Shown here piece after piece: positions 3,800 through 55,989 of a DNA stretch of 64,000 nt; positions within the stretch are counted from its first letter, which is position 1, and the number at the start of each line of letters is the position of its first letter. Below the pieces are notes generated by a model. It had not been told where the DNA came from. It worked only from the letters and a program-made list of their open reading frames with translations, and did not search any database. Made by a program: the position numbers and the translations under genes. Source of the stretch: Mobula hypostoma (taxonomy: Eukaryota); NCBI RefSeq assembly GCF_963921235.1, contig NC_086097.1:156118001-156182000 (forward strand), in the 5' to 3' direction.

Positions 3800-4677
3800 T
3801 GTTACGTACCCCGTAACTGGGTTGCCAAACCAACAGAAATGGATCACTCAGTTGGAGTCTGGAGTACTAGAACTAAGAAAGTTTTATTAAAGAAACAAGC
3901 AACACATTAATCGAAAGGATAATAAATGCAACAGTTCAGCGATGATAAACGCACATGTGCACAGAATTAAGATAACAGCATCAATCAAGCTCTATCGTTG
4001 TCTAGGGGTACATGACCAATTTCAAAATGACTCAAAGTTCAGTCCAGTTTGTAGTTCAGTTCGCAGTAATCGTTGTCATGGCGATGGACAAGGTGGGGGG
4101 AGAGAGACAGAATAGGAACAACTGATCATTCAGAACGGCTTCACTCACAGACCAGCAGGATGGCTCACAGACCAGCGAGATGGCTCACAAACAGCTTTTT
4201 GGGCGGGTCCTTGGTGATGTCACCTGAGGTCACCGACTGTGACCCCTCCTCCAGATGCGGTCGATCCTCTGCAGTGAACCCGGCACCCAGGCAAGGGCGG
4301 ACACACACCGGGTTCCCGCTGATCGTACCTTTCCACCCTTGTCGTTGTCTGGGACTTCTCACCCACTCGTGAGAAGCGCACCGCTTCCAGGGTCTCGTTA
4401 CCTCGGGTGGCGTGTGTGTCTGTCTTAGCGAACCTGTCCCTTTTTATCCCCCTGCTGGGGTATCGCCTGTCCATCACTTCAAACAGTTCAGGGCTCAAAG
4501 GGGGGAGCCGCTCCAGACAGCTCTTCCTCCCACATCCCTTCATTACACATCTCCAGACGCCGCTCCATTGTTCCTTATCTCTCCTTCCCCTGAGGGCAGG
4601 TGGCAGACCAACTGCTGATGCCACTGATGCTAGCCCAGGCCAGCAAACATCTTAATTTTATGTGTATTCTCGTAACA
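3800..4677 (-). repeat. 3' LTR of copy 1 (878 bp)
   Basis: Direct repeat of 7823-8680; differs by one 20-bp unit and one substitution that I could see. Confidence 0.97.
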
Positions 4678-4690
4678 CTTCCCCCCTTTA
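4678..4690 (-). promoter_or_regulatory. Polypurine tract of copy 1
   Basis: AAAGGGGGGGAAG immediately before the 3' LTR on the minus strand. Confidence 0.9.
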
Positions 4691-4849
4691 AGGATTTTTA
4701 CCGGGAGGTAAAAATTACAAACATGACTACATTATCTGATACATACACAATATACATCTTTAACAGTTATTTAGCTAATACAGAGAATTTGAAATTGTCA
4801 ACACCTTGACAGACAGTCATCACATTTTCTGTTCCTTTTACACGTGTTA

Positions 4850-7723
4850 TTAATAATCCCTTAGACCAGGCTCCAACTCAGCAAACTTCATAGTGGCCAA
4901 AAACACTGATGAATTGCGACCAATGTAACCTCTCATTTGGTTTTGTCCCGGACCACAACAACAAGGGTCGTCCCATTCCGACTCAATTTTCCCTCGCAAG
5001 GGCTTAGTAGGAGGGGGACGGGTATTGACCGCAGAGTTATTGCAAAACTTCCTGCAGTACCCCACCATCTCCAAAAGCCTTCTGAGGGCCCTCTTGTCTG
5101 TCGGGGTTGGGAGGTCAGCGATAGCCTGCACTGTAGCTTGCATCACTGCCAGCTGCCCCTGTGTCACCACAATTCCCAGGTAAGTGACATTCGCGTGGCC
5201 GAATTCATTTTTTCCAAGGTTCACTATCAAGCTGGCTTCAGACAGCCGTGTTAAATTGCCAATACACACCTCTGTGTTCATCAGCCCTTTAGTCACTGAA
5301 TTACTCAAAAAATATGGGTGTTGTTTACTTGGCCGCCCTATTGTAACCGACATAACCCAACGTCCCAGTTCTTTGCATTTCCTCGGGACAATCAAACACA
5401 TGGGTGCGAGTCGTTTAATTACTCCTTCGGGGATTAAGGGAGAGACCTTATCAGTAGACCTGGCCAAAACAATAGCCTTCTCCCATCTGACCGATCCCAT
5501 CCTAATCTTTTCAAAATGGTTTTTTCCTCTTATCAGGGGGCCCCTAGCTTCATTGATTTCCACGCTAACACCGACTAGGTTTGTTAGCATATCAAAAGCC
5601 GGTGACCGTCTCAGTTCGCGTCGGTCATGATCAATAACATTTTTCCCCCTGGGCAGCCGGTAACTCTCTTTCATGATTCCACCAACTGTTTCCTCCAGCA
5701 CCGCAAAATGTCCACCGGGGGGTACCTCGTGGGCCATGTTAAAAACCTCATCCCCATAACTCTTTTGCACCACCCCCCACTCCTCATCTGCGGATGCTGT
5801 ACTTGATTTCCCTTTCTTCCTTAGCACTTCCTCATCCGCACAATAGCTTGTCAAGGCTGTGTCAGAGAGAGCGGTCTCGGCAAAAACCATCAGCCCCTCG
5901 TCTCGCTCCTGCGTCTGCACAAATTCTTTCCTGGCTACTGCTACGTCCGTCCCAGCTCCCTCACTACCTCTTATCTCACTACACCCTGTCTCATACAAGG
6001 TTGGCAGGAATGTTTCAGCCAAATTCACCATCGCGGGCGGGGCCTCCATGCTGGCAGGCTGACCCGTCAATCTCACGACTGGGAACACGATTCCTCCGGC
6101 GATGTCATTACCGAGCAAGACTTCCACGTCTTTCATCGGTAATTCGGACCTCACCCCGATCGTGACTAGTCCAGAGACCAGGTTGCTCTGTAAATGTATC
6201 TGGTGCAAAGGGACTGACTCTGTCCCTTCCCCAACACCTTTGACCTCTACCTCCCCAGTCTGGGTCTCTGAGCTAAACTCTAATACACTCTTCAATATCA
6301 ATGACTGACACGCTCCCGTGTCTCTCCAGATCCGCACTGGAACTGGTTTTAACCCCTCCTTCACTGACACCAGTCCGGCCGAGATAAACCTCTCGCGCCC
6401 TTCCTGGACTTTTTCAGACCTGTCCTTCCCTAGCGGTTCGCTTAACAGCTCAATACAGCCATTCAAAATTTCCGCTTTTCCTTTCCCCGTCTCCTTCCTT
6501 GGGGCAAAGCACCTGGACGCAAAGTGTCCGACTTTCCCACAATTATAACAGACGACCCCAGGAGACTTCCTACCAGGCTGCTCCCGGTCTACCTTATCCT
6601 TTTCACTAGTCCCCGGCTTACTTTCTGACTTTTCCGGCGGACTCTCCCCGCCGTCCTGACTACCCTTCTGGTAGCCTTTACTCGGGGCAACCTTCATTTT
6701 ATGCGTCAACGCATACTCATCCGCTAACTTAGCAGTTGCGGCTAACGTGGCTGCCTCTTTCTCATCGAGGTAGGGTCTCATACCCTCAGGGACACAACCT
6801 TTAAACTGCTCAATCAGAACCAGTTGCAGCAGTCTGTCATAATCCCCCTCTACCCCTTTCGAGGCGCACCAACGCTCACAATATGTTTGCATCTCACGAG
6901 CAAACTCCAAATACGTGCGGTCCCACCGCTTCCTCGCATTCCGGAACCTCTGCCGGTATGCCTCCGGGACCAACTCATAAATCCTGAGGATGGCCTCCTT
7001 CACCACCTCATACTTCTGGGCATCTTCCGCGGATAAGGCGGAGTAAGCTTGTTGGGCCTTCCCTTTCAGTACACTCTGAAGTAAGACAACCCACTTATCC
7101 CTCGGCCATTCCTGACTTATGGCCACTTTTTCGAAATGGAGAAAGTACCGATCCACATCGGTATCGTCAAAAGGGGGAACCAGCCTAACCTCCTGGGTCG
7201 CCCGGAACCCTCCACCTTGGTTCGGCACGAGCCCCTGCTCGGCCCTTATCTTTAACTTCTCCAGCTCAAATTCCCTTTCCCTCTGTTTCTCCTCTCTCTC
7301 CAACTGTCTGTCCCTCTCTCTCTCTTCTCTCTCCAACTGTCTTTCTCTCTCTTGCCTTTCTACCTCTTTCTCTCTCTCCCGCCTTTCTAACTCTCTCTCT
7401 TTCTCCTGCCTTTCTAACTCTCTCTCTTTCTCCTGCCTTTCTAACTGCCGTACCCGGAACTCGTGCTCGAGTCTCAGTTTTTCAAGCTGTACCTGTACCG
7501 CGTCTCCAGCAGGTTTTTCAATAGACACCTCCCCCAGCTCACCTTGGGGAAACACACCTTTAGATACATAGTGCTCTACAATAGCTCTGTGTATCTCCTC
7601 TCTCCTCATTGTCGACTTCACCTTAGCAAGATTCACCCGTTTTGCCACAGCTATCAATTCTGATTTCCTGGCATCCTCTAATGCCTCCAAGGTCGGCGCC
7701 TTTATAAATTCCTCAACCTCCAT
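4850..7723 (-). CDS. Gag (coiled coil, SCAN-like capsid CTD, CCHC)-aspartic protease-vestigial IN/RT polyprotein, 957 aa
   Basis: PEAYRQRFR...LVLIEQF (SCAN-like); CYNCGKVGHFASRC; WRDTGA; AHE.P.GGH; PSKQHPY; VTYLG...MVGYCRKF. No YxDD or DDE core. Confidence 0.9.
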   Translation of the reverse strand: MEVEEFIKAPTLEALEDARKSELIAVAKRVNLAKVKSTMRREEIHRAIVEHYVSKGVFPQGELGEVSIEKPAGDAVQVQLEKLRLEHEFRVRQLERQEKERELERQEKERELERREREKEVERQERERQLEREERERDRQLEREEKQREREFELEKLKIRAEQGLVPNQGGGFRATQEVRLVPPFDDTDVDRYFLHFEKVAISQEWPRDKWVVLLQSVLKGKAQQAYSALSAEDAQKYEVVKEAILRIYELVPEAYRQRFRNARKRWDRTYLEFAREMQTYCERWCASKGVEGDYDRLLQLVLIEQFKGCVPEGMRPYLDEKEAATLAATAKLADEYALTHKMKVAPSKGYQKGSQDGGESPPEKSESKPGTSEKDKVDREQPGRKSPGVVCYNCGKVGHFASRCFAPRKETGKGKAEILNGCIELLSEPLGKDRSEKVQEGRERFISAGLVSVKEGLKPVPVRIWRDTGACQSLILKSVLEFSSETQTGEVEVKGVGEGTESVPLHQIHLQSNLVSGLVTIGVRSELPMKDVEVLLGNDIAGGIVFPVVRLTGQPASMEAPPAMVNLAETFLPTLYETGCSEIRGSEGAGTDVAVARKEFVQTQERDEGLMVFAETALSDTALTSYCADEEVLRKKGKSSTASADEEWGVVQKSYGDEVFNMAHEVPPGGHFAVLEETVGGIMKESYRLPRGKNVIDHDRRELRRSPAFDMLTNLVGVSVEINEARGPLIRGKNHFEKIRMGSVRWEKAIVLARSTDKVSPLIPEGVIKRLAPMCLIVPRKCKELGRWVMSVTIGRPSKQHPYFLSNSVTKGLMNTEVCIGNLTRLSEASLIVNLGKNEFGHANVTYLGIVVTQGQLAVMQATVQAIADLPTPTDKRALRRLLEMVGYCRKFCNNSAVNTRPPPTKPLRGKIESEWDDPCCCGPGQNQMRGYIGRNSSVFLATMKFAELEPGLRDY

Positions 7724-7792
7724 TTCTGCTGTTTGTCTTTTCTTTCTTTCGGGAATTTTAACCCAATCAATTTACTCCGTCCCAAATTTAGC

Positions 7793-7818
7793 GTTCAAAA
7801 TCGCGGACGAGAACCCCA
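7793..7818 (-). promoter_or_regulatory. Primer binding site of copy 1 (variant tRNA-Pro)
   Basis: TGGGGTTCTCGTCCGCGATTTTGAAC, 4 nt after the 5' LTR; resembles the tRNA-Pro complement TGGGGGCTCGTCCGGGATTTGAAC. Confidence 0.8.
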
Positions 7819-7822
7819 CTTA

Positions 7823-8680
7823 TGTTACGTACCCCGTAACTGGGTTGCCAAACCAACAGAAATGGATCACTCAGTTGGAGTCTGGAGTACTAGAACTAAG
7901 AAAGTTTTATTAAAGAAACAAGCAACACATTAATCGAAAGGATAATAAATGCAACAGTTCAGCGATGATAAACGCACATGTGCACAGAATTAAGATAACA
8001 GCATCAATCAAGCTCTATCGTTGTCTAGGGGTACATGACCAATTTCAAAATGACTCAAAGTTCAGTCCAGTTTGTAGTTCAGTTCGCAGTAATCGTTGTC
8101 ATGGCGATGGACAAGGTGGGGGGAGAGAGACAGAATAGGAACAACTGATCATTCAGAACGGCTTCACTCACAGACCAGCAGGATGGCTCACAAACAGCTT
8201 TTTGGGCGGGTCCTTGGTGATGTCACCTGAGGTCACCGACTGTGACCCCTCCTCCAGATGCGGTCGATCCTCTGCAGTGAACCCGGCACCCAGGCAAGGG
8301 CGGACACACACCGGGTTCCCGCTGATCGTACCTTTCCACCCTTGTCGTTGTCTGGGACTTCTCACCCACTCGTGAGAAGCGCACCGCTTCCAGGGTCTCG
8401 TTACCTCGGGTGGCGTGTGTGTCTGTCTTAGCGAACCTGTCCCTTTTTATCCCCCTGCTGGGGTATCGCCTGTCCATCACTTCAAACAGTTCAGGGTTCA
8501 AAGGGGGGAGCCGCTCCAGACAGCTCTTCCTCCCACATCCCTTCATTACACATCTCCAGACGCCGCTCCATTGTTCCTTATCTCTCCTTCCCCTGAGGGC
8601 AGGTGGCAGACCAACTGCTGATGCCACTGATGCTAGCCCAGGCCAGCAAACATCTTAATTTTATGTGTATTCTCGTAACA
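7823..8680 (-). repeat. 5' LTR of copy 1 (858 bp)
   Basis: TG...CA termini, adjacent PBS, internal AATAAA. Confidence 0.97.
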
Positions 8681-10875: not shown

Positions 10876-11279
10876 CTTAACCCTTTCATGACAATTATCC
10901 AACATCACAACTTTTAACCAAAGTAAATCTCATTCAGTCACTTATCAATCTTTGCAAAAATAATCTGTTCTTCCAGAAAATCAAATTCAGATCCTTAAAG
11001 TGAGAAATAAATGATACTTTCAACCATATTAAATGCTTTACGCCTTGAAAGGTTTCATTTCTATACTAGTTTATCAAATTTGGGTGGCTTGCCATCTTGT
11101 TTCTTGGTTCGTTGGATGCAATGGTAGGTCATCCATGGAAAGTCGATTCAAAATAATTACACAAAAAATATCCAACTTGTACTACTTGTACAATCCATAA
11201 ATTCTTATATGCATTCTATTTTCTATTTCAAAGTAACTCAATATCACATTGTCATTTCCAACCACTTCTCAGTTACACT

Positions 11280-12138
11280 TGTTACGAGAATACACATAAA
11301 ATTAAGATGTTTGCTGGCCTGGGCTAGCATCAGTGGCATCAGCAGTTGGTCTGCCACCTGCCCTCAGGGGAAGGAGAGATAAGGAACAATGGAGCAGCGT
11401 CTGGAGATGTGTAATGAAGGGATGTGGGAGGGAGAGCTGTCTGGAGCGGCTCCCCCCTTTGAACCCTGAACTGTTTGAAGTGATGGACAGGCGATACCCC
11501 AGCAGGGGGATAAAAAGGGACAGGTTCGCTAAGACAGACACACACGCCACCCGAGGTAACGAGACCCTGGAAGCGGTACGCTTCTCACGAGTGGGTGAGA
11601 AGTACCAGACAACGACCAGGGTGGAAAGGTACGATCAGCGGGAACCCGGTGTGTGTCCGCCCTTGCCTGGGTGCCGGGTTCACTGCAGAGGATCGACCGC
11701 ATCTGGAGGAGGGGTCACAGTCGGTGACCTCAGGTGACATCACCAAGGACCCACCCAAAAGTTGCTCGTGAGCAATCTCGCTGGTCTGTGAGTGAAACTG
11801 TGCTGAATGATGAGTTGTTCCTATTCTATGTCTCTCTTCCCCCACCTTGTCCATCGCCATGGCAACGATTACTGCGAACTGAACTACTAACTGGACTGAA
11901 CTTTGAGTCATTTTGAAATTGGTCATTTACCCCTAGACAACGATAGAGCTTGATTGATGCTGTTATCTTAATTCTGTGCACATGTGTGGTTATCATTGTT
12001 GAATTGTTGCATTTATTATCCTTTCGATTACTGTGTTGCTTGTTTCTTTAATAAAACTTTCTTAGTTCTAGTACTCCAGACTCCAACTGAGTGATCCATT
12101 TCTGCTGGTTTGGCAACCCAGTTACGGGGTACGTAACA
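11280..12138 (+). repeat. 5' LTR of copy 2
   Basis: Direct repeat of 15386-16244; TATA-like GATAAAAA near 11509 and AATAAA near 12050. Confidence 0.97.
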
Positions 12139-12142
12139 TAAG

Positions 12143-12168
12143 TGGGGTTCTCGTCCGCGATTTTGAAC
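12143..12168 (+). promoter_or_regulatory. Primer binding site of copy 2 (variant tRNA-Pro)
   Basis: TGGGGTTCTCGTCCGCGATTTTGAAC, identical to copy 1. Confidence 0.8.
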
Positions 12169-12237
12169 GCTAAATTTGGGACGGAGTAAATTGATTGGGT
12201 TAAAATTCCCGAAAGAAAGAAAAGACAAACAGCAGAA

Positions 12238-15213
12238 ATGGAGGTTGAGGAATTTATAAAGGCGCCGACCTTGGAGGCATTAGAGGATGCCAGGAAATTG
12301 GAATTGATAGCTGTGGCCAAACGGGTGAATCTTGCTAAGGTGAAGTCGACAATGAGGAGAGAGGAGATACACAGAGCTATTGTAGAGCACTATGTATCTA
12401 AAGGTGTGTTTCCCCAAGGTGAGCTGGGGGTGGTGTCTATTGAAAAACCTGCTGGAGACGCGGTACAGGTACAGCTTGAAAAACTGAGACTCGAGCACGA
12501 GTTCCGGGTACGGCAGTTAGAACACGAAGAGAAGCAGTTAGAAAGGCAGGAGAAAGAGAGAGAGTTAGAAAGGCAGGAGAAAGAGAGAGAGTTAGAAAGG
12601 CAGGAGAAAGAGAGAGAGTTAGAAAGGCGGGAGAAAGAGAGAGAGTTAGAAAGGCGGGAGAGAGAGAAAGAGTTAGAAAGGCGAGAGAGAGAGAAAGAGG
12701 TAGAAAGGCAAGAGAGAGAAAGACAGTTGGAGAGAGAAGAGAGAGAGAGGGACAGACAGTTGGAGAGAGAGGAGAAACAGAGGGAAAGGGAATTTGAGCT
12801 GGAGAAGTTAAAGATAAGGGCTGAGCAGGGGCTCGTGCCGAACCAAGGTGGAGGGTTCCGGGCGACCCAGGAGGTTAGGCTGGTTCCCCCATTTGACGAT
12901 ACCGATGTGGATCGGTACTTTCTCCATTTCGAAAAAGTGGCCATAAGTCAGGACTGGCCAAGGGATAAGTGGGTTGTTTTACTTCAGAGTGTACTGAAAG
13001 GGAAAGCCCAACAAGCTTACTCCGCTTTATCCGCGGAAGATGCCCAGAAGTATGAGGTGGTGAAGGAGGCCATCCTCAGGATTTATGAGTTGGTCCCGGA
13101 GGCATACCGGCAGAGGTTCCGGAATGCGAGGAAGCGGTGGGACCGCACGTATTTGGAGTTTGCTCGCGAGATGCAAACATATTGTGAGCGTTGGTGCGCC
13201 TCGAAAGGGGTAGAGGGGGATTATGACAGACTGCTGCAGCTGATTCTGATTGAGCAGTTTAAAGGTTGTGTCCCTGAGGGTATGAGACCCTACCTCGATG
13301 AGAAAGAGGCAGCCACGTTAGCCGCAACTGCTAAGTTAGCGGATGAGTATGCGTTGACGCATAAAATGAAGGTTGCCCCGAGTAAAGGCTACCAGAAGGG
13401 GAGTCAGGACGGCGGGGAGAGTCCACCGGAAAAGTCAGAAAGTAAGCCGGGGACTAGTGAAAAGGATAAGGTAGACCGGGAGCAGTCTGGTAGGAAGTCT
13501 CCTGGGGTCGTCTGTTATAATTGTGGGAAAGTCGGACACTTTGCGTCCAGGTGCTTTGCCCCAAGGAAGGAGACGGGGAAAGGAAAAGCGGAAATTTTGA
13601 ATGGCTGTATCGAGCTGTTAAGCGAACCGCTAGGGAAGGACAGGTCTGAAAAAGTCCAGGAAGGGCGCAAGAGGTTTATCTCGGCCGGACTGGCGTCAGT
13701 GAAGGAGAGGTTAAAACCAGTTCCAGTGCGGATCTGGAGAGACACGGGAGCGTGTCAGTCACTAATACTGAAGAGTGTATTAGAGTTTAGCTCAGAGACC
13801 CAGACTGGGGAGGTCAAGGTCAAAGGTATTGGAGAAGGGACAGAGTCAGTCCCTTTGCACCAGATACATTTACAGAGCAACCTGGTCTCTGGACTAGTCA
13901 CGATCGGGGTGAGATCCGAATTACCGATGAAAGACGTGGAAGTCTTGCTCGGTAATGACATCGCCGGAGGAATCGTGTTCCCAGTCGTGAGATTGACGGG
14001 TCAGCCTGCCAGCATGGAGGCCCCGCCCGCGATGGTGAATTTGGCTGAAACACTTCTGCCAACCTTGTATGAGACAGGGTGTAGTGAGATAAGAGGTAGT
14101 GAGGGAGCTGGGACGGACGTAGCAGTAGCCAGGAAAGAATTTGTGCAGACGCAGGAGCGAGACGAGGGGCTGATGGTTTTGGCAGACACCGCTCTCTCTG
14201 ACACAGCCTTGACAAGCTATTGTGCGGAGGAGGAAGTGCTAAGGAAGAAAGGGAAATCAAGTACAGTATCCGCAGATGAGGAGTGGGGGGTGGTGCAAAA
14301 GAGTTATGGGGATGAGGTTTTTAACATGGCCCACGAGGTACCCCCCGGTGGACATTTTGCGGTGCTGGAGGAAACAGTTGGTGGAATCATGAAAGAGATT
14401 TACCGGCTGCCCAGGGGGAAAAATGTTATTGATCATGACCGACGCGAACTGAGACGGTCACCGGTTTTTGATATGCTAACAAACCTAGTCGGTGTTAGCG
14501 TGGAAATCAATGAAGCTAGGGGCCCCCTGCTAAGAGGAAAAAACCATTTTGAAAAGATTAGGATGGGATCGGTCAGATGGGAGAAGGCTATTGTTTTGGT
14601 CAGGTCTACTGATAAGGTCTCTCCCTTAATCCCCGAAGGAGTAATTAAACGACTCGCACCCATATGTTTGATTGTCCCGAGGAAATGCAAAGAACTGGGA
14701 CGTTGGGTGATTGTGGTTACAATAGGGCAACCAAGTAAACAACACCCATATTTTTTGAGTAATTCAGTGACTAAAGGGCTGATGAACACAGAGGTGTGTA
14801 TTGGCAATTTAATACGGCTGTCTGAAGCCAGTTTGATAGTGAACCTTGAAAAAAATGAATTCGGCCACACGAGGGTCACCTACCTGGGAATTGTGGTGAC
14901 ACAGGGGCAGCTGGCAGCGATGCAAGCTACACTGCAGGCTATCGCTGACCTCCCAACCCCGACAGATAAGAGGGCCCTCAGAAGGCTTTTGGAGATGGTG
15001 GGGTACTGCAGGAAGTTTTGCAATAACTCTGCGGTCAATACCCGTCCCCCTCCTACTAAGCCCTTGCTAGAGAAAATTGAGTCGGAATGGGACGACCCTT
15101 GTTGTTGTGGTCCGGGACAAAACCAAATGAGAGGTTACATTGGTCGCAATTCATCAGTGTTTTTGGCCACTATGAAGTTTGCTGAGTTGGAGCCTGGTCT
15201 AAGGGATTATTAA
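12238..15213 (+). CDS. Gag-SCAN-CCHC-protease-vestigial IN/RT polyprotein, 991 aa
   Basis: Colinear with 4850-7723. SCAN-like ~13096-13350; CCHC 13513-13554; DTG at 13741; RT thumb-like ~14810-15105. Confidence 0.9.
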   Translation: MEVEEFIKAPTLEALEDARKLELIAVAKRVNLAKVKSTMRREEIHRAIVEHYVSKGVFPQGELGVVSIEKPAGDAVQVQLEKLRLEHEFRVRQLEHEEKQLERQEKERELERQEKERELERQEKERELERREKERELERREREKELERREREKEVERQERERQLEREERERDRQLEREEKQREREFELEKLKIRAEQGLVPNQGGGFRATQEVRLVPPFDDTDVDRYFLHFEKVAISQDWPRDKWVVLLQSVLKGKAQQAYSALSAEDAQKYEVVKEAILRIYELVPEAYRQRFRNARKRWDRTYLEFAREMQTYCERWCASKGVEGDYDRLLQLILIEQFKGCVPEGMRPYLDEKEAATLAATAKLADEYALTHKMKVAPSKGYQKGSQDGGESPPEKSESKPGTSEKDKVDREQSGRKSPGVVCYNCGKVGHFASRCFAPRKETGKGKAEILNGCIELLSEPLGKDRSEKVQEGRKRFISAGLASVKERLKPVPVRIWRDTGACQSLILKSVLEFSSETQTGEVKVKGIGEGTESVPLHQIHLQSNLVSGLVTIGVRSELPMKDVEVLLGNDIAGGIVFPVVRLTGQPASMEAPPAMVNLAETLLPTLYETGCSEIRGSEGAGTDVAVARKEFVQTQERDEGLMVLADTALSDTALTSYCAEEEVLRKKGKSSTVSADEEWGVVQKSYGDEVFNMAHEVPPGGHFAVLEETVGGIMKEIYRLPRGKNVIDHDRRELRRSPVFDMLTNLVGVSVEINEARGPLLRGKNHFEKIRMGSVRWEKAIVLVRSTDKVSPLIPEGVIKRLAPICLIVPRKCKELGRWVIVVTIGQPSKQHPYFLSNSVTKGLMNTEVCIGNLIRLSEASLIVNLEKNEFGHTRVTYLGIVVTQGQLAAMQATLQAIADLPTPTDKRALRRLLEMVGYCRKFCNNSAVNTRPPPTKPLLEKIESEWDDPCCCGPGQNQMRGYIGRNSSVFLATMKFAELEPGLRDY

Positions 15214-15373
15214 TAACACGTGTAAAAGGAACAGAAAATGTGATGACTGTCTGTCAAGGTGTTGACAGCTTCAAATTCTCTGTATTAGCTAAATAACTAT
15301 TAAAGATGTATATTGTGTATGTATCAGATAATGTAGTCATGTTTGTAATTTTTACCTCCCGGTAAAAATCCTT

Positions 15374-15385
15374 AAAGGGGGGAAG
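15374..15385 (+). promoter_or_regulatory. Polypurine tract of copy 2
   Basis: AAAGGGGGGAAG directly before the 3' LTR. Confidence 0.9.
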
Positions 15386-16244
15386 TGTTACGAGAATACA
15401 CATAAAATTAAGATGTTTGCTGGCCTGGGCTAGCATCAGTGGCATCAGCAGTTGGTCTGCCACCTGCCCTCAGGGGAAGGAGAGATAAGGAACAATGGAG
15501 CAGCGTCTGGAGATGTGTAATGAAGGGATGTGGGAGGGAGAGCTGTCTGGAGCGGCTCCCCCCTTTGAACCCTGAACTGTTTGAAGTGATGGACAGGCGA
15601 TACCCCAGCAGGGGGATAAAAAGGGACAGGTTCGCTAAGACAGACACACACGCCACCCGAGGTAACGAGACCCTGGAAGCGGTACGCTTCTCACGAGTGG
15701 GTGAGAAGTACCAGACAACGACCAGGGTGGAAAGGTACGATCAGCGGGAACCCGGTGTGTGTCCGCCCTTGCCTGGGTGCCGGGTTCACTGCAGAGGATC
15801 GACCGCATCTGGAGGAGGGGTCACAGTCGGTGACCTCAGGTGACATCACCAAGGACCCGCCCAAAAGTTGCTCGTGAGCAATCTCGCTGGTCTGTGAGTG
15901 AAGCTGTGCTGAATGATGAGTTGTTCCTATTCTATGTCTCTCTTCCCCCACCTTGTCCATCGCCATGGCAACGATTACTGCGAACTGAACTACTAACTGG
16001 ACTGAACTTTGAGTCATTTTGAAATTGGTCATTTACCCCTAGACAACGATAGAGCTTGATTGATGCTGTTATCTTAATTCTGTGCACATGTGTGGTTATC
16101 ATTGTTGAATTGTTGCATTTATTATCCTTTCGATTACTGTGTTGCTTGTTTCTTTAATAAAACTTTCTTAGTTCTAGTACTCCAGACTCCAACTGAGTGA
16201 TCCATTTCTGCTGGTTTGGCAACCCAGTTACGGGGTACGTAACA
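15386..16244 (+). repeat. 3' LTR of copy 2
   Basis: Direct repeat of 11280-12138. Confidence 0.97.
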
Positions 16245-16659
16245 CACTATTGAACATATTTCACACACAAATTATACACACGGGACAGTAAAAGAGTTTT
16301 AACTCACTGAATCCCTTGGTATGATTTAACGAACTTATTTCCGGTTACATGATAGAGATCTTGGGCACTACTCTGCCGATATTGTCTCGCTATAGCTGGT
16401 GCTCATTATAGCTATAGCTTCAATAAATCTTTTATCAATATCATCTCTCCTCCAGGGGTTTAACTCTGAGGACTTATGATAAGTAGGGTAGAGATATTAA
16501 CTATGAATTCCATTTTAACAGTTTATATCTTTAATTAGCTTTTATAGTTTGCTGTTTCTGTCACTTGTTCATGCTTGCACCAGCCATGACTCATTCTCAC
16601 ATATTTATTTTTTTTTCCAATTTTTAAAACTTCATTAATCCGAAGAGTAGAAATTGCTG

Positions 16660-17075
16660 GCCAGTAATTTCATTCGTATGGCCAGTGATGTTGTGGGGAT
16701 GGAACTGGACTCTCTGACGGTGGTGTCTGAAAAGAGGATGCTGTCCAAGTTGCATGCCATCTGGGACAATGTCTCCCATCCACTACATAATGGACTGGTT
16801 GGGCACAGGAGTACATTCAGCCAGAGACTCATTCCACTGAGATGCAACACAGAGCGTCATAGGAAGTCATTCCTGCCTGTGGCCATCAAACTTTACAACT
16901 CCTCCCTTGGAGGGTCAGACACCCTGAGCCAATAGGCTGGTCCTGGACTTATTTCCTGGCATAATTTACATATTACTATTTAACTATTTATGGTTTTATT
17001 ACTGTTTAATTATTTATGGTGCAACTGTCATGAAAACCAATTTCCCCCGGGATCAATAAAGTATGACTATGACTA
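16660..17075 (+). mobile_element. Rex1/Babar-like LINE 3' end
   Basis: DNVSHPLH...RCNTERHRKSFLPVAIKLYN C-terminus, then AATAAA and a (TATGAC)n tail. A further piece of the same family lies on the minus strand at ~19562-19660. Confidence 0.8.
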
Positions 17076-17908
17076 AAGATTGATGCGTTTGATGACACAG
17101 CAGATTACTGGAATTTGTTTACTGAAGAGATAGAGCAATATTTTGAAGCAAATGAAATAGCCAATGAGAAACGAGTACAAAGTTTACTGAGTTCATTGGG
17201 TTTTAAGGTATACATTTTTTTTCAAAGTTTAACTGCTCCAACCAGTCCATCAGAGATGAGCTTTGCTGATATTATTAAAAGTGATGCAGGAACACTGAGA
17301 ATCAAAGCTATTGTTGATTGCAGAACACTAAGTTCAAAAGCAGAATGTAAAGGAAGCCGAGTGCATTTCAATGTACGTGGCTGTACTGATGCTGGTTTAA
17401 GGATGAAACACAGAAAATGCAACAAAGTAGGACACATACAAGGGGCATGTCAGGGAGACAAAAATAAATGTTCTGCTCAGGGTGAGAAAGTTCAGAAGTC
17501 AAGTTGCAATTTCAAAAAGAGCACCAATCTGCATGCTCTTGATGAAAAATCTGTTAGTGATGAAGGCAGCCTTGAGATTTACAGAGTGAAAATTAACTAC
17601 AGACAAGAAATATGCCTCACACCTGAAATGAATGGCAAATTAATTAAATGGAATTGGACATTGGTTCAGCTGTTTCAGTCATTCCACAAAGAGTTTGAAC
17701 AGCATTTCAAGGATACTAAACTGAAGCCTGTAGATTTCCAGCTGAGAACTTATACTGGAGAAAAGATAACTCCAGTGGGAATAACATCCATAAGCGTGAA
17801 ATACACCAACCAACAAACCACGATGAGCTTGCATGTGCTAATATCAGGAGGACCAACACTGTGGGTGTGTGATTGGCTACAATTTGATTGGAGATCCATC
17901 CACCATTT
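17076..17908 (+). mobile_element. Degenerate Gypsy (Mag/K02A2.6-like) gag-protease fragment
   Basis: EEIEQYFEANEI..KRV; knuckle remnant KCNKVGHIQGAC; LRTYTGEKITPVG. Confidence 0.8.
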
Positions 17909-20358
17909 GTAAGAATGTTTGATGTAGCCCAGGCATGGAGAGAGAAAAACTGAAGTGGGTAGACAGTTCACTGACCAATGAGTACTGTTGGAAAATTTAA
18001 AGAAAAAGGAAAGCAATAAATGCAAGGCCAACAGGGCCGTTAACTAGAACTGTCAAACTGAAAGTAAAATACCAATACTGAGGCTGAAAGCACTATCTAA
18101 GTAATAAATGAATACAGGTCCTCTCCAGCATCAGTCAAAACAGTAGTCCTCTTAGCAGGGTAAGGACGACAGTAAGTCTCGATAAGACTACAATGAAGAG
18201 AAGGGAGTTAACTACCACCATAAGAAACAGTATTTAGCTAATGAGAGCAATTGCTGAACCTCTTGCTCATCCTACCTGTGGGGGCATGTAGACCCTGCAG
18301 CAGAGTCGTGGTAGAGACAGGGCTCTCCTCCCTAGGCACAGCGCCTGAGGTGCCACAGATCTGCTCCTTCTGGACATCACAGATAAGAGATTTGTCCAGA
18401 TTGTCATCTGGGATCCAAGGACATTCTTCAGGACCATACCCTTCATAATCCACGAGGTACTGGACCTTGCTCCATACCTGGCAAGACGCCAGGAGGTTTT
18501 GTACAGTATAGACCAAAGAATCATCCACCAAGTTGGGAGGAAGGAGAAGTGGGGGAACTTGATCTGGGAAACATGGGACACTGGGTGAATCTTCACTGAT
18601 GAAGGCAGGCACAATCTATACGATACCTTGTTGATAGCCTTTTCCACTCCAAGTGGTCATGCATAGCGTGGGGCCAACTTGTGGCTCTTGACTTTCAGGA
18701 GAAGATCGCAAAATTCTAACCAGACAGATCTTCTTTCATGGCTTGAAAAGCCTTACCTATTGGTGGAGCCAATCAGCCTGCTGGGCATGTTGTTTCTGGG
18801 CGCGCAGCAGAGAAGCCCTGGCTCAACTCCGTGTGCGCTTGTGGCACTGGATCAGCTGTTCAGCAGCAGGAACTCCCACATCAGTCTCAGGGAATCAATG
18901 GTTGCTGGAATCCCTTCTGCAATTCAAAGGGGACATACCAGTGGAGGATGACTGGAGGTTATTGTGGACAATTTCTGCCCAAAGCAATTGGAAGCTCCAG
19001 GGCATGAGATTGAAAGAGGCAAGGTAGTGCATGGTTGTCTCCAACTCCTGATTCACTCTCCCAGTCTGGCCATTGGATTCGGGTTGGAACCAGAAGAGAG
19101 GTTGGCCGTGGTTCCTACAAGAGAGCAGGAAGTTTTCCGAGAATGGGATGTGAACTGTGGTCCTTGATCAGAAGGATGCCAGGCAAGGCTGCCAGGCTGC
19201 CTGAGCACACGTTGAATCCTGAGTGTGGCAGTCTCACGAGCTGACGGGAGGTTACGGAGAGCAATGAAATGGGCAGCCTTGGAGAAATGATCCACAACAA
19301 GTAAAACAGTGTTTCCATTAGACAGGGGGCAGCACACAGATGAATTCCACTGAGAGGTAGGACCGGGGCAGTGGGGCACAGGCAGCGGATATACTGTAGC
19401 AGATATGCAGGATGCTGGCATGACATCTATTTCTGGGCACAGGTGGGACATGCAGAGATGAAGTCATGGACATCCTGGGACATAGATGGCTACCAAAATT
19501 GTCTCTTGGCAAACTTCCAGGTCCTTTAAATTCCCTGATGTCCAACCAAACGGAATGACTCGGTGGAATGAGTCTCTGGCTGAATGTACTCCTGTGCCCA
19601 ACCAGTCCACTATGTAGTGGATGGGAGACATTGTCCAAGATGGCATGCAACTTGGACAGCTGTTGAAAACAAAAAGGGATGCTTTGCCCCTTCCTGCCAG
19701 TGTCACCATTCTTCCAGGGTTTCCTTGACAGCTAGAGGTTCTCAGCTCCCAATATCGTACTTACTCTTGGCTGGAGACAAACGATGGGAAAGAAAGGCAC
19801 AAGGGTGCAACTGGGACACAAGGGAGCGCTGAGAGACTTACAGCTCCAATGCCAATGTTGGATAGATCCACTTCAACAGTGAATGACCAGCATGTGTCTC
19901 GGTGTTGGAGCACAGGGTATTGAGGCATCACTTTGGTTCTGAGAAGGCTTGGTCTGTTTTACTTTCCTCCTGCAGAGCTCTTCCTGATGAGTGCACTTGT
20001 GGGGGCAGTGATAGAGCTGAAATTTCAGATGAAGCAGTGACAAGAGTTCACAAACTCCATCAAGTGCCTCACCTGTTTGACTACATATTTTGAGTCACCC
20101 TGTAAATGCCTGAACTTTACTCAGTTCCATTTGAACATTGGAAGGGGTAAGTGTAGATCCCAAAAACTCCACCTGGTCTGTATGGAACTCACGGTTCTCT
20201 GGGTTGGCATGCAGGTTATTCTCAAGATGCTGTCTGAGAACCATCTAGACATGCTGGACATGTTCCTGGTGAAAGTGAGAATAGAGAAGAATGTCATCCA
20301 AATACACAAAACAGATTGCTTCAACGTGTCTGAAAACACATCATTGACTACCCTGGAC

Positions 20359-41469: not shown

Positions 41470-43195
41470 CATAGAATAGTACAGCACAGTACAGGCCCTT
41501 CGGCCCACAATGTTGTGCTGACCCTCAAACCCTGCCTCAAATATAAGCCCCCAACTTAAATTCCTCCATATACCTGTCTAGTAGTCTCTTAAACTTCACG
41601 AGTGTAGCTGCCTCCACCACTGACTCAGGCAGTGCATTCCATGCACCAACCACTCTCTGAGTAAAAATCCTTCCTCTAGTATCCCCCTTGAACTTCCCAC
41701 CCCTTACCTTAAAGCCATGTCCTCTTGTATTGAGCAGTGGTGTCCTGGGGAAGAGGTGCTGGCTGTCCACTCTATCTATTCCTCTTATTATCTTGTACAT
41801 CTCTATCATGTCTCCTATCACCCTCCTTCTCTCCAAAGAGTAAAGCCCTAGCTCCCTTAATCTCTGATCATAATGCATACTCTCTAAACCAGGCAGCATC
41901 CTGGTAAATCTCCTCTGTATCCTTTCCAAAGCTTCCACATCCTTCCTATAGTGAGGTGACCAGAAATGGACACAATACTCCAAGTGTGGCCTAACCAGAG
42001 TTTTATAGAGCTGCATCATTACATTGCGACTCTTAAACTCTATCCCTCGACTTATGAAAGCTAACACCCCATAAGCTTACTTAATTACCCTATCCACCTG
42101 TGAGGCAACTTTCAGGGATCTGTGGACATGTACCCCGAGATCCCTCTGCTCCTCCACACTACCAAGTATCCTGCCATTTACTTTGTACTCTGCCTTGGAG
42201 TTTGTCCTTCCAAAGTGTACCACCTCACACTTCTCCGGGTTGAACTCCATCTGCCACTTCTCAGCCCACTTCTGCATCCTATCAATGTCTCTCTGCAATC
42301 TTTGACAATCCTCTACACTATCTACAACACCACCAACTTTTGTGTCATCTGCAAACTTGCCAACCCACCCTTCTACCCCCACATCCAGGTCGTTAATAAA
42401 AATCACGAAAAGTAGAGGCCGCAAAACAGATCCTTGTGGGACACCACTAGTCACAATCCTCCAATCTGAATGTACTCCCTCCACCACAACCCTCTGCCTT
42501 CTGCAGGCAAGCCAATTCTGAATCCACCTGGTCAAACTTCCCTGGATCCCATGCCTTCTGACTTTCTGAATAAGCTTACCATGTGGAACCTTTTCAAATG
42601 CCTTACTAAAATCCATATAGATCACATCCACTGCACTACCCTCATCTATATGCCTGGTCATCTCCTCAAAGAACTCTATCAGGCTTGTTAGACACGATCT
42701 GCCCTTCACAAAACCATGCTGACTGTCCCTGATCAGACCATGATTCTCTAAATGCGCAGAGATCCTATCTCTAAGAATCTTTTCCAACAGCTTTCCCACC
42801 ACAGACGTAAAGCTCACTGGTCTATAATTACCCAGACTATCCCTACTACCTCTTTTGTACAAGGGGACAACATTCGCCTCCCTCCAATCCTCCGGTACCA
42901 TTCCCGTGGACAACGAGGACATAAAGATCTTAGCCAGAGGCTCAGCAATCTCTTCACTCACCTCGTGGAGCAGCCTGGGGAATATTCCGTCAGGCCCTGG
43001 GGACTTATCCGTCCTAATGTATTTTAAGAACTCCAACACCTCCTCTCCCTTAATATCAACATGCTCCAGAACACTCATATTGTCCTCATCATCAAGTTCC
43101 CTCTCATTGGTGAATACCGAAGAGAAGTATTCATTGAGGACCTTGCTCACTTCCACAGCCTCCAGGCACATCTTCCCACCTTTATCTCTAATCGG
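41470..43195 (-). mobile_element. CR1 LINE, 5'-truncated ORF2 (RT), fairly well preserved
   Basis: ORFs 42077-43171 and 41537-42067: KSPGPDG, NYRPVS, DFSKAF, GVPQGSVL, FADDTK. Confidence 0.95.
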
Positions 43196-43327
43196 TCCAC
43201 TAACCGCAGCAGCACAAGTGTAGAGACTGGGTCTGTTTTTGTTTGAGATATGGCCAATTAATGTAGTGTCCTCAGCAAATTTAATTAGCAGATTGGAGCT
43301 GTGGGTGGCGATACAGTCATGAGTATA

Positions 43328-44947
43328 CGGGTTTCCCCCGCCATCCGAAGGTAGAGCATTCCTATGAAGCAGTTCGTAAGCCGGAAGAAGTAATTACCAT
43401 TAATTTATATGGGAAAAATTTGTGAGCATTCGCAGAACCAAAAATAACCTACCAAATCATGCCAAATAACACATAAAACCTAAAATAACAGTAACATATT
43501 GTAAAAGCAGGAATGATATGATGAATACACAGCTTATATAAAGTAGAAATACTTTTCCACAATCATTGCCGCACTGTTCTCCGTAGTGAAAATCTCACGC
43601 AAGCGCTCTCGGCAGAAACACGGCGCAAGCGCTCTCCAGTAACCTTTAAGCTATGGAGCTGCCAAATCATACAAAATAACAGGTAAAAATACACAGCCGA
43701 TATAAAGTAGAAATAATGTACGTACAGTGTAGTATCACTAACCGGAATTGGGACAGCGCCGACCGCACTGATGATGGTGTGTTAGGCTGAGTCATCGGAG
43801 TTTGGGGTAGTGCAGTGGCCCCCAACCTCCGGGCAGCGAGCCGATACCAGTCTGTGAAGAATGCAGCGGTCCAGCGGTAGCCAGGACGCACCCAGCACAT
43901 CTTTAAGAAAAAAGCTGAAACAAACAAGCTAATTAATTAGGTGCCACCTGGTACGTAAATGTCAGCTTAGATCAGTGGCGACACAATTGGCAATCGCCTC
44001 TGATCTGGGCTGACATTTACGTGCTGGGCGGCACCTAATTAATTAGCTTGTTTATTTTGTCTTTTTTTCTTAAAGATGTTCTGTTTGCGTCCTGGCTACC
44101 GTTGCATTCTTCGCGGATCGGTATCTGTCTGCAGCCCAGGGGTTGGGGTGGTGGGACACTGGGGTGTCATCTGTTTCCATCAGGGCAGGCAGGTCATCTT
44201 CTTCTATGTCTGCCTGCCTCGATGTTGAAGGTCGAGGTTCGTCGTCTGCTGTGGCTGATGTGGGAGGCTTGAAAAACGACAGTATGTTTGACTGCTTAGC
44301 CTTGCGCATTTTTCTATCATAGCGTTCTTTGTAAGCACTCAAGCCATCCTGCAAATATGCCCTAAACTGACGTACCCTTTCAAAATTAAAGTTGTACTTT
44401 ATCATTGCAGCGAAAATCTCACGCAGGTACTTCACGTTCAGTTCCTGGATGACTTCACTTTCGGTCTGTTCGCTACTGCATTCAGTTTCGATTGTTATCC
44501 TTTCCTCTTCCATTTGCATCAGCTCTTCACCTATCAGTCCTTGGTCATGAGATGACAAAATCTCTTCAACATCATCTTCGTCAACTTCCACAAGCCAAAC
44601 TCCCTTTGTCCTTACTTCGTTCACCACGATCGAAATGCTTAATTATGTCTGTTTTACACTAAGTGTAACACCCTTATGAGCTCTTTTAGGCTTTTCCGAT
44701 ACCTTAGAACTCATCTTGCAAACAGATGCTCACAGGCACTTGTTTAAGCAATGCCGGCTAGAATGCCGTTCCGACTCTGGGGGAGGAGCGGCTGCTTGGG
44801 GTGTGTGGCGCGCTGCCTTTTTTTGCACGCTGCCTTTTCTCATAACAGTGTAAAAACCTTCTGTTAGCAAAAACAGGTAACTAATGTAGGTATTTTGCAA
44901 CTGTGAGGTTTCGTAAAGCGAACGTTCGAAAACCGGGGGGGGACCTG
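43328..44947 (-). mobile_element. Internally deleted Tigger/pogo DNA transposon
   Basis: TA at both flanks; imperfect TIRs CGGGTTTCCCCCG / CAGGTCCCCCCC; N-terminal KRAHKGVTLSVK..IIKHFDRGE joined to C-terminal VDEDDVEEILSSH..QSNILSFFK. Confidence 0.85.
43813..44161. mobile_element. Long palindromic hAT-like MITE inside the Tigger element
   Basis: Imperfect ~350-bp inverted repeat; its left arm matches the MITE at 20359. Confidence 0.75.
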
Positions 44948-46079
44948 TACATGGAGTAAAGGAGGGGACTCAGTACGCAGCCCTGAGGGGCTCCGGTATT
45001 GAGAGTCAGAGGGGCAGAGGTGAGGGAGCCCACTCTTACAACTTGCTGGCGATCTGACAGGAAGTCCAGGATCCAGCTGCACAAGGCAGGGTCAAGGCCG
45101 AGGTCTCTGAGTTTCTTGTCGAGCCTGGATGGAACGATGGTGTTGAATGCTGAACTGTAGTCCAAGAACAACATTCTCACATAAGCATCCTTCTTCTCCA
45201 GATGTGTAAGGACGATATGTAGAGCGGTGGCCATTGCATTATCTGTCGATCAGTTGTGTCAGTAGACGAGTTGTAGGGGGTCCAGTTTGGGTGGTAGCGT
45301 GCTGCAGATGTAGTCCTTGACCAGCCTCTCAAAGCATTTGCTTATTATTGAGGTGAGTGCGACAGGACGCCAGCCGTTCAGACATGTTACCTTGGTTTTT
45401 GTTGGTACAGGGACAATGGTGGATAATTTGAAGCAGGAGGGCACTCTACACTGGGAGAGGGAGAGATTTACAAAGTCAGTAAACACACCTGCCAGTTGTG
45501 CTGCGCACATCCTGAATACTCGTCCTGGGATGCTGTCTGGTCCCACAGCCTTGTGACTGTCCACTCGTTGGAAACATCTGTGTACCTCAGCCTCAGAGAT
45601 GACCGGGTTACAGGTTGTAGCGGTGGCTTTCCTCGGAGGTTCAGAGTTAGCAACATCGAACCCAGCATAAAAGTGATTGAGCTCATCTGGGAGAGAGGCC
45701 ACGATGTTGGCAGCACCGCAGCGTTTTGCTTTGAAGTCTGCGATGGTATGCAGCCCTCGCCACAAGTCACGTCTGCTATTCGTTGTGAATCTTGACTCAA
45801 TCTTGTCCCTGTATTGTTGTTTTGCAGCCTTGATAGCTTTGCGCAGATCATAACTGTTTTTCTTGAGCTCTAGATGATCGCCAACGATGTAAGCTCGATG
45901 TCGCGCTATAAGTGCTGCTCGCATGGAACTGTTGATCCAGGGTGTCTGGTTCGGGAAGACGCTGACCGACTTCTGGGGGGGACAACATCATTGATGCACT
46001 TCCGGATGAAGCACGTGACTCCATCAGTGAACTTGAAGACTTGCTCATCATGGAAGACATTCCAGTCATTCAGTTTGTT

Positions 46080-55289: not shown

Positions 55290-55732
55290 ATCATCATCAT
55301 CATCATCATCAGGCGCCATGCCCAGTTTGAGCTTTGACTGCCATGGCCCACACACTCCTGTTTGAGGTCAAGTGGATCAGTTCATTGGTATTCATTTCCA
55401 ATTCTCTGGCTGCTGTCTCCATCATAATTTTTCTTTGCTTTCCTTTTGCTTTCTTCCCTTCAATCTTTCCCATAATTACCATGCATTCTAACTCCTCTTT
55501 CTTAATCACATGTCCAATGAAGTTACGTTGCCTTTTCATGATCTCATACATTATTTTTCTTTTTGTGTTTGCTCTGTTCATGACATCCTTGTTAGATATT
55601 CGTTTCATCCATGATATTCTTTGCATCCTCCTCAAAAACCACATCTCTGCTGCTTCAATTCGTTTCCTCATGTTACTAGATATTGTCCAACATTCTGAGC
55701 CATATAACATCACTGGATAAACGTAATACAGT
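55290..55732 (-). mobile_element. RTE-clade LINE 3' end with (TGA)n tail
   Basis: PVMLYGSECWT..IEAAEMWFLRRMQRISW..GKIEGKK; (TCA)n on the plus strand at 55290-55310. Confidence 0.9.
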
Positions 55733-55989
55733 ATACAAAAAAAAATACATATTTGCACAACCCCATTACTAAAAAAACATAATATTCTGCCATGTATGCC
55801 AGGAAAGGCACCAGAAAGCCAAGCTGAGTGCATCAGCTCGGTTTAGGGCCCATTATGAGAATATACAGGGGAAGACATTAAAGTGTGTACACACAGCGCA
55901 CTGACAGCAGAATGACAAGGCAACGTTTGTGTGTGTGTAAATGTGCGTGTGTAAGGAATGTGTTTACTGAGGGCTCTCCATCGCACTAC

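Follow-up and report, generated by a model that had tools for sequence, protein, structure and literature searches.

Structure of the LTR elements in the window

Two LTR retrotransposons of the same family were identified in the window, i.e., the whole analyzed stretch of 64,000 nt from Mobula hypostoma. Copies A and B lie on opposite strands, 2.6 kb apart. They have the same primer binding site (PBS) as well as the same polypurine tract (PPT) and are flanked by separate 4-nt target site duplications (TSDs; Table 1). The LTR pair of copy B (859/859 nt) shows 2 mismatches and that of copy A (858/878 nt) shows 1 mismatch and a 20-nt indel. Between the LTRs of A and B, 27 of 857 aligned sites differ. 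A local duplication of one broken copy was rejected, since the TSDs and LTR variants of A and B differ and the family is found genome-wide.

Table 1. Features of copies A and B, further frames in the window and Pfam domains of the full-pol partner. Positions refer to the window, those of the partner to its protein (aa).
Feature	Position	Strand	Remarks
Copy B, whole deleted-form Gmr1-type LTR element	11280..16244	+	TSD CACT at 11276-11279 and 16245-16248
B 5′ LTR	11280..12138	+	859 nt, TG...CA
B primer binding site	12143..12161	+	tRNA-Pro type; commoner, mismatched variant
B single ORF	12238..15213	+	991 aa from ATG; Gag, protease, Pol remnant
B 27-nt tandem repeat in Gag	12500..12796	+	codes for an E/R/K-rich stretch
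B SCAN-like capsid C-terminal domain	13096..13365	+	aa 287-376; Pfam
B CCHC zinc knuckle	13510..13554	+	aa 425-439; Pfam
B aspartic protease	13675..14028	+	DTG motif at 13735-13755
B Pol remnant	14029..15213	+	394 aa
B half IN zinc finger	14329-14355	+	in Pol remnant
B junction of 867-nt IN loss	~14441	+	
B IN-RT linker		+	between 867-nt and 384-nt loss junctions
B junction of 384-nt RT loss	~14755	+	
B decayed YIDD	14797-14808	+	now CIGN
B RT thumb block		+	between CIGN and 258-nt loss junction
B junction of 258-nt RNase H loss	~15103	+	
B RNase H C-terminal tail	15214..15270	+	out of frame past the stop; deletions of 14, 8 and 4 nt
B polypurine tract	15374..15385	+	
B 3′ LTR	15386..16244	+	sole AATAAA at 16156, 942 nt past the ORF stop
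Copy A, same family, independent insertion	3800..8680	-	TSD GGTG
A 5′ LTR	7823-8680	-	
A ORF	4850-7723	-	957 aa
A 3′ LTR	3800-4677	-	
Decayed Gag-protease-like frame	17073-17912	+	unrelated LTR element; CCHC-like and protease-like words
Putative LINE-type reverse transcriptase/endonuclease frame fragments	41537-43393, 45259-45987, 55309-55842, 58801-61099		
Partner Integrase_H2C2	aa 686-742		Pfam
Partner rve	aa 763-858		Pfam
Partner RVT_1	aa 1175-1332		Pfam
Partner RT_RNaseH	aa 1421-1527		Pfam

Each copy contains one ORF with a SCAN domain, a CCHC knuckle and a DTG protease, as stated in the initial annotation. In the Pfam search, SCAN (PF02023) was found with an E-value of 1e-12 in A, B and the full-pol partner described below, and zf-CCHC with 5e-6 in the ORFs of A and B. 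The protease match was weak in the window copies (E 0.05); the partner has the identical protease motif WRDTGAC, and 53 of 58 aligned copies retain it. Neither rve nor RVT_1 was matched by the ORFs of A and B in this search, and a search against the PDB returned zinc-knuckle and weak SCAN matches only. The 27-nt repeat in Gag, also found in the partner, is variable in copy number among copies and accounts for most of the ORF length variation.

The Pol pieces behind the protease, first estimated at about 360 aa, form a remnant of 394 aa. They keep the domain order of the partner (IN then RT) and are followed by the out-of-frame RNase H tail, both as originally described. The word RGPL, formerly listed among the integrase pieces, is a chance word aligned to the IN-RT linker; the real integrase RGPL lies inside the 867-nt deletion. 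The reported absence of catalytic cores agrees with the missing rve and RVT_1 matches, but the YxDD motif was mutated in place (YIDD to CIGN) and not deleted. The zinc-finger cysteines and YIDD are lost, and both catalytic motifs are absent from the remnant. Its best preserved piece is the RT thumb block with 76 codons free of indels. The 394-aa tail alone matched 0 Pfam families at E<=1.

The annotated proteins closest to the tail (81-96% over the tail) carry NCBI names from Mobula hypostoma. In the search for the tail in other species, only proteins named from Mobula hypostoma were present among 8,000 scored candidates. Sequencing runs of a second organism also cover the Pol remnant. Contigs of three runs, presumed to be RNA, cover 30 of 30 element bins, a coverage that is not evidence of transcription.

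Identification of a full-pol partner and exchange between the two forms

The genome was searched with the integrase core of a fish relative (P0001), and 150 of 18,289 first-look candidates were scored. The fish query is itself a gene-model fusion of a Gmr1-type polyprotein and a lectin-domain host protein (residues ~1575-1931). Seven of the 20 loci fetched from this search share the LTR (93-98%) and Gag of the family. In the reference partner, SCAN, CCHC, PR, IN, RT and RH are located in one unbroken frame of 1,548 aa. This partner also matches RT_RNaseH_2, Integrase_p58_C and SH3_Tf2-1 and has no RVT_2 match, which identifies it as Gypsy-type and not Copia-type. The autonomous partner that the initial annotation had proposed to look for was found, together with a recombinant copy.

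The domain order PR, IN, RT-RH with a SCAN-type capsid is that described for Gmr1 (bioRxiv 10.1101/2025.03.03.638093; PMC8220671), and the origin of SCAN has been linked to Gmr1-like elements (PMC4592553). The assignment of the family to the Gmr1 type is supported by the partner, in which the SCAN capsid is followed by PR, IN and RT-RH and which shares the 4-nt TSD and the tRNA primer with Gmr1-like Ty3/Gypsy elements. Unlike these elements, the dominant form here has no IN, RT and RNase H core.

Partner and deleted form have the same PBS variants and PPT, and the median LTR divergence is 0.35% and 0.24%, respectively. For young copies, the mean LTR distance in two segments was 2.4 and 3.2% between deleted and partner copies and 2.5 and 3.2% among deleted copies; for the capsid, these values were 2.5% and 2.6%. 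The 5′ LTR of copy B is likewise about as distant from the partner LTR as from other deleted copies. Further downstream, deleted and partner copies differ by 15.6% and 9.7% in the two linker-protease halves (about 10% in the C-terminal half of the protease), by 25.8% in the IN zinc-finger remnant and by 19.3% in the RT thumb. In FastTree trees, which were read with no formal clade test, those of LTR and capsid show the two forms mixed, and those of protease and RT thumb show them apart. Furthermore, the recombinant copy (L122) is a single-crossover chimera: its sites are of the deleted type as far as partner position 1981 and of the partner type from position 2138 on.

The chimera and the intermixed LTR and capsid trees suggest co-packaging of both forms and template switching between them, which would also be the route by which the enzymes are borrowed. 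Other Gmr1 families in the genome, in which 18,289 first-look IN candidates were counted and 150 scored, could provide enzymes as well.

The PBS is dimorphic in both forms. A minority matches tRNA-Pro, the host genes of which were confirmed, and in the majority the site has one additional base and is mismatched. A heritable variant, reset in part from the tRNA in each round and perhaps retained to evade PBS-directed silencing, would fit this pattern.

Abundance of the deleted form

The exact LTR/PBS junction was matched 2,252 times genome-wide (reversed-sequence control: 0). In the count of deleted against full pol that had been suggested initially, a 22-nt motif of the deleted form gave 1,608 exact genome matches and the full-pol motif 28, both numbers being lower bounds, as the former is present in 30 of 40 copies and the latter misses the chimera. 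Among 27 examined matches of the full-pol motif, 9 were young copies with the same LTR; the others were older relatives, either full or partly deleted.

An unselected sample consisted of the first 40 LTR/PBS junctions on contig C1, picked without regard to the interior. It comprised 30 young deleted copies (two of them with extra private losses), 6 middle-aged deleted copies, 2 older less-deleted copies, 1 old full-pol copy and 1 chimera. The IN, RT and RH cores are missing in 38 of these 40 copies, which supports the earlier proposal that the family replicated in its deleted form. A frame of more than 900 aa is open from the Gag start in 16 of the 40. The median LTR divergence of the young unselected copies was 0.24% (n=30). 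Of 20 fetched close copies, 18 had a perfect 4-nt TSD and LTRs that could be read on both sides (L044 was unreadable, L048 imperfect). With an intact Gag-protease, no catalytic capacity for RT and IN, and a spread in the deleted form, the family appears to be a semi-autonomous Gag-Pro family.

Stepwise loss of pol

Copies of different age represent successive stages, so that a complete path from the full to the reduced element is visible in one genome. Full pol (stage 1) is followed by the 867-nt loss of the IN core, with RT and RNase H kept (stage 2; 5 copies aligned, median LTR divergence 5.2%). Stage 3 adds the 384-nt (RT) and 258-nt (RNase H) losses, with YIDD still intact (L101, L103). 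In the middle class (stage 4; median LTR divergence 3.4%), small trims are present and YIDD is decayed. The young class (stage 5) shows four extra trims (27, 21, 12 and 18 nt), three of which are still polymorphic. An extinct-looking class whose sole loss is the IN core, removed in frame, and in which RT and RNase H persist was multi-copy (L141, L146, L148, L153, L154 and L156).

The deleted lineage is old, because its remnant is 19-26% diverged from the partner. The description as a young family holds for the insertions in the window but not for this lineage.

In the part of copy B that extends from the end of the protease to the RNase H remnant, 14 indels were counted against the full-pol reference, and every one is a multiple of three (in nt: 27, 36, 21, 12, 15, +3, 867, 21, 18, +3, 384, 54, +3 and 258). 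Three deletions further on, of 14, 8 and 4 nt, end the ORF of B, and frameshifts were fixed only in the last ~15 codons of the ORF. Overall, the tail shrank from about 950 aa to 394 aa. It is ~390 aa long in all young copies, and 1 of the 40 copies (L125) is without most of it. The distance from the ORF stop to AATAAA, 942 nt in B, is 905 nt in the partner. Splicing was rejected as the source of the three large losses, the junctions showing short direct repeats (AGGCG, ATGA and TTTG-like) and not GT-AG ends.

Selection on capsid, protease and Pol remnant

With dN/dS values of 0.1-0.25, both capsid and protease are subject to purifying selection, in agreement with the initial view that the family supplies both itself. 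A variant set of 50 young copies was used, excluding the 6 middle-class copies and the 2 with large private losses. For variants shared by at least 3 of these 50 copies, dN/dS was 0.14 (capsid), 0.20 (protease), 0.58 (IN remnant) and 1.79 (RT remnant; 17 N vs. 4 S). Between real copies, values of 0.16-0.23 were obtained for the C-terminal half of the protease (P<0.004) and of 0.74-1.03 for the linker and the N-terminal half. The deleted lineage thus maintains its own protease, since this part is exempt from swapping and dN/dS is low in its C-terminal half. The capsid is swapped between the forms, and for this reason its selection signal could be partly imported.

For the remnant, 138 N and 56 S changes were counted in 297 scorable codons on the lineage to the young class, corresponding to a dN/dS of 1.02. 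The same segments on the partner lineage yielded 0.26, and the same RT block there 0.11. In pairs of real copies, dN/dS was 0.86-1.05 in the IN piece; the RT thumb had values of 0.68-0.76, and no value was significantly below 1. The range determined for the RT thumb block, 0.63-0.78, is not significantly below 1 either, which leaves room for a weak protein constraint on this block. The possibility that the remnant conceals a cis RNA signal was rejected: divergence is even, the longest unchanged run is 21 nt (P 0.9) and no conserved patch was found.

Selection on the open reading frame

In a conservative indel count, which omits the 867- and 15-nt losses already present in RT-retaining copies, 12 of 12 indels are in frame. 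As a control, 23 shared indels were scored in 50 LTRs, and 1 of them was a multiple of three. Private post-insertion indels in the scored coding regions were in frame in 8 of 25 cases. On the remnant lineage to the young class, 0 stops were fixed vs. 6.3 expected (P 0.002). Within the 50 young copies, private remnant variants included 5 stops and 6 frameshifts and shared variants no stop; of 61 shared changes none, and of 171 private changes 11, were stops or frameshifts, a difference that is not significant alone (P 0.07). One 1-nt remnant insertion was found in 2 of the 50 copies.

Selection on the tail acts on the open frame and not on the residues, since dN/dS is ~1 and yet there are no stops and all indels are in frame. 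The check on dN/dS and stops proposed at the outset therefore gave a divided answer: a value near 1 was obtained, but no stops, which means selection on the frame alone.

Possible reasons for the maintenance of the open tail

The results are probably best explained by an enzyme-less, high-copy Gmr1-type form with a selected capsid and protease, which borrows RT and IN from a rare partner with the same LTR and keeps its tail in frame for translation up to near the 3′ end. The element would be transcribed from the same LTR as the partner and would make Gag-protease with a junk tail. The deleted RNA is likely packaged with Gag-Pol of the partner, whose RT and integrase would copy and insert the deleted form. 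The tail residues would be irrelevant and reading through the tail would matter, with selection presumably acting in cis on the RNA of each copy.

The least certain step concerns the benefit of this translation, which, as a best guess, may protect the genomic RNA for survival and packaging. A stop just after the protease would lie ~2.1 kb from the poly(A) signal, compared to 0.94 kb (partner 0.91 kb). Such a long 3′UTR could expose the unspliced genomic RNA to nonsense-mediated decay (NMD) or a similar translation-linked surveillance, and as a consequence the tail could shrink only in frame. NMD has been described as a response to long 3′UTRs, from which Rous sarcoma virus is protected by a stability element (PMC6205489). 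A minimum RNA length is a possibility for why the tail was not lost in one step. Since many copies carry private stops at various places in the tail, RNA data would suffice for a direct test of the RNA-surveillance idea.

It is conceivable, though doubtful, that the two forms are a mutualistic pair, which would be compatible with the other readings. The partner would make one Pol per Gag and the deleted form would supply excess capsid. The unbroken 1,548-aa Gag-Pol frame of the partner, free of any frameshift, is consistent with this, as are the capsid being the same across the forms and the lack of partner escape through at least three age classes (medians 5.2, 3.4 and 0.24%). The same idea was proposed for wheat Quinta/Cereba and Sabrina/WHAM (PMC9744471; PMC11302176). 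However, recombination by itself homogenises LTR and capsid, the older full-pol copies amplified as well, and the present rarity of the partner (the 9 young same-LTR copies among the 27 examined matches) fits parasitism. A stable two-part system, with a rare Gag-Pol form, an abundant capsid supplier, continual swap of LTR and capsid and a dead Pol eroding in triplets only, is put forward just as tentatively. If it were true, the genome would hold erosion fossils and hundreds of natural premature-stop alleles for mapping the germ-line RNA surveillance of LTR elements.

The chief competing reading, a role of the tail as a sequence-independent protein, is rather unlikely. Its nascent chain could tether Gag-protease to its own RNA (cis preference), or it could be a Gag-Pol-sized spacer that times protease activation or assembly. 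Such a role and the RNA model explain an open frame of drifting residues equally well, and the protein role is favoured by the constant ~390 aa of the young copies and by the IAP 1-delta-1 fusion protein, which acts in cis (PMC6466679; PMC7411935). Against this, an out-of-frame tail of any sequence would do until reaching a stop, the tail kept shrinking to its 394 aa, and the protease by itself gives a tether of ~150 aa past the zinc knuckle.

The initial annotation suggested a Pol scaffold that helps co-assembly with the helper or interferes with it; as a sequence-specific scaffold, the IN zinc-finger half and the RT thumb would bind the helper Pol or interfere with it. The RT thumb block is indeed the best kept piece (76 codons, dN/dS 0.63-0.78), but the proposal is improbable: the residues are neutral (1.02 overall and 0.68-1.05 in pairs) vs. 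0.26 in the partner and 0.11 in its RT block, the shared RT remnant variants are 17 N to 4 S, no Pfam match is left, and the zinc-finger cysteines and YIDD are gone. That the tail is unselected and its frame was kept open by microhomology deletion bias and luck in a few master copies is highly improbable: microhomology pairs in this pol are in frame above one third (0.39-0.54) and few master lineages mean few independent events, but even at 0.54 the probability of 12-14 consecutive in-frame events is <0.001, the bias leaves the 0 stops vs. 6.3 expected unaccounted for, and of the 23 indels that this replication machinery fixed in the LTR, 22 are not multiples of three.

Comparison with known semi-autonomous elements

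A Gag-protease form with borrowed enzymes, as in the preferred reading, has counterparts in plants. Gag(-Pro) elements have been described there for RLG_Sabrina_SA and RLG_WHAM with RLG_Wilma, for RLG_Quinta with RLG_Cereba and for TR-GAG (PMC9744471; PMC11302176; bioRxiv 10.64898/2026.03.01.708851). As in these elements, an intact Gag(-Pro) ORF is combined with the lack of RT and IN, a high copy number, LTR/PBS motifs shared with the partner and LTR exchange by template switching. In contrast to them, the host is a vertebrate, LTR and capsid are fully intermixed and a decayed Pol tail is fused in frame. Such partnerships, known from plants, are thereby extended to the lineage of vertebrate elements from which SCAN arose. 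A survey of sugar beet reported families with decayed pieces of Pol, and its main text contains 0 matches of the terms 'in-frame' and 'open reading frame' (bioRxiv 10.64898/2026.03.01.708851).

The mouse IAP 1-delta-1 is similar in its internal deletion, in-frame gag-pol fusion, helper in trans and cis-acting ORF, and it out-replicates its helper (PMC6466679; PMC7411935). It is retrovirus-derived, has one deletion of 1.9 kb and needs the Gag of the helper too, whereas the ray element has 14 successive in-frame indels, ~20% neutral drift and a complete Gag and protease of its own. Defective-interfering RNAs of MHV require a long ORF but not the encoded chimeric protein (PMC8255065, citing de Groot 1992 and van der Most 1995). 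This is an analogy and not a membership, as these RNAs come from an RNA virus in cell-culture passages and the present case is a germ-line retrotransposon with a long genomic fossil series. With this family, a rule known until now from experiments on defective viral RNAs and the mouse IAP may have a natural counterpart that has operated over a long time.

In a literature search that had most subscription journals and Repbase/Dfam outside its coverage, no non-autonomous Gmr1 family was found described. With most subscription journals and the repeat libraries likewise outside, no report of frame-only selection in LTR retrotransposons was found, nor, in literature on elasmobranch Gypsy elements with most subscription journals outside, a description of such an element. 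Gag-protease semi-autonomous elements and a cis-acting fusion ORF are already known; new here are the frame-only selection and the fossil series. An intact retroelement ORF is usually read as a working protein or as domestication, and a 394-codon frame with neutral residues warns against such a reading.

Other elements in the genome

A second, older Gmr1 family with LTR pairs of 92-95% and its own shared deletion forms was observed (L088, L095, L096, L098, L090 and L091). In its first form, the integrase is kept, RT and RNase H are lost, and a stop is located at the junction, ~280 nt before the 3′ LTR; the ORF ends near 5200 in the oriented loci L088, L095, L096 and L098. In the second form, RNase H alone is lost.

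A 966-aa copy of the ORF analyzed here (P0003) carries the NCBI name 'metastasis-associated in colon cancer protein 1 isoform X1' and probably reflects a gene model into which an inserted element was drawn. A number of other copies of the ORF are annotated as host LOC genes. Two full-pol-type elements (L085/L086; G000:C80, ~24.47-24.48 Mb) are arranged in tandem with a common LTR, and a tandem pair with a common LTR, apparently of the deleted type, was found at 150,480,403 and 150,484,523 of G000:C1.
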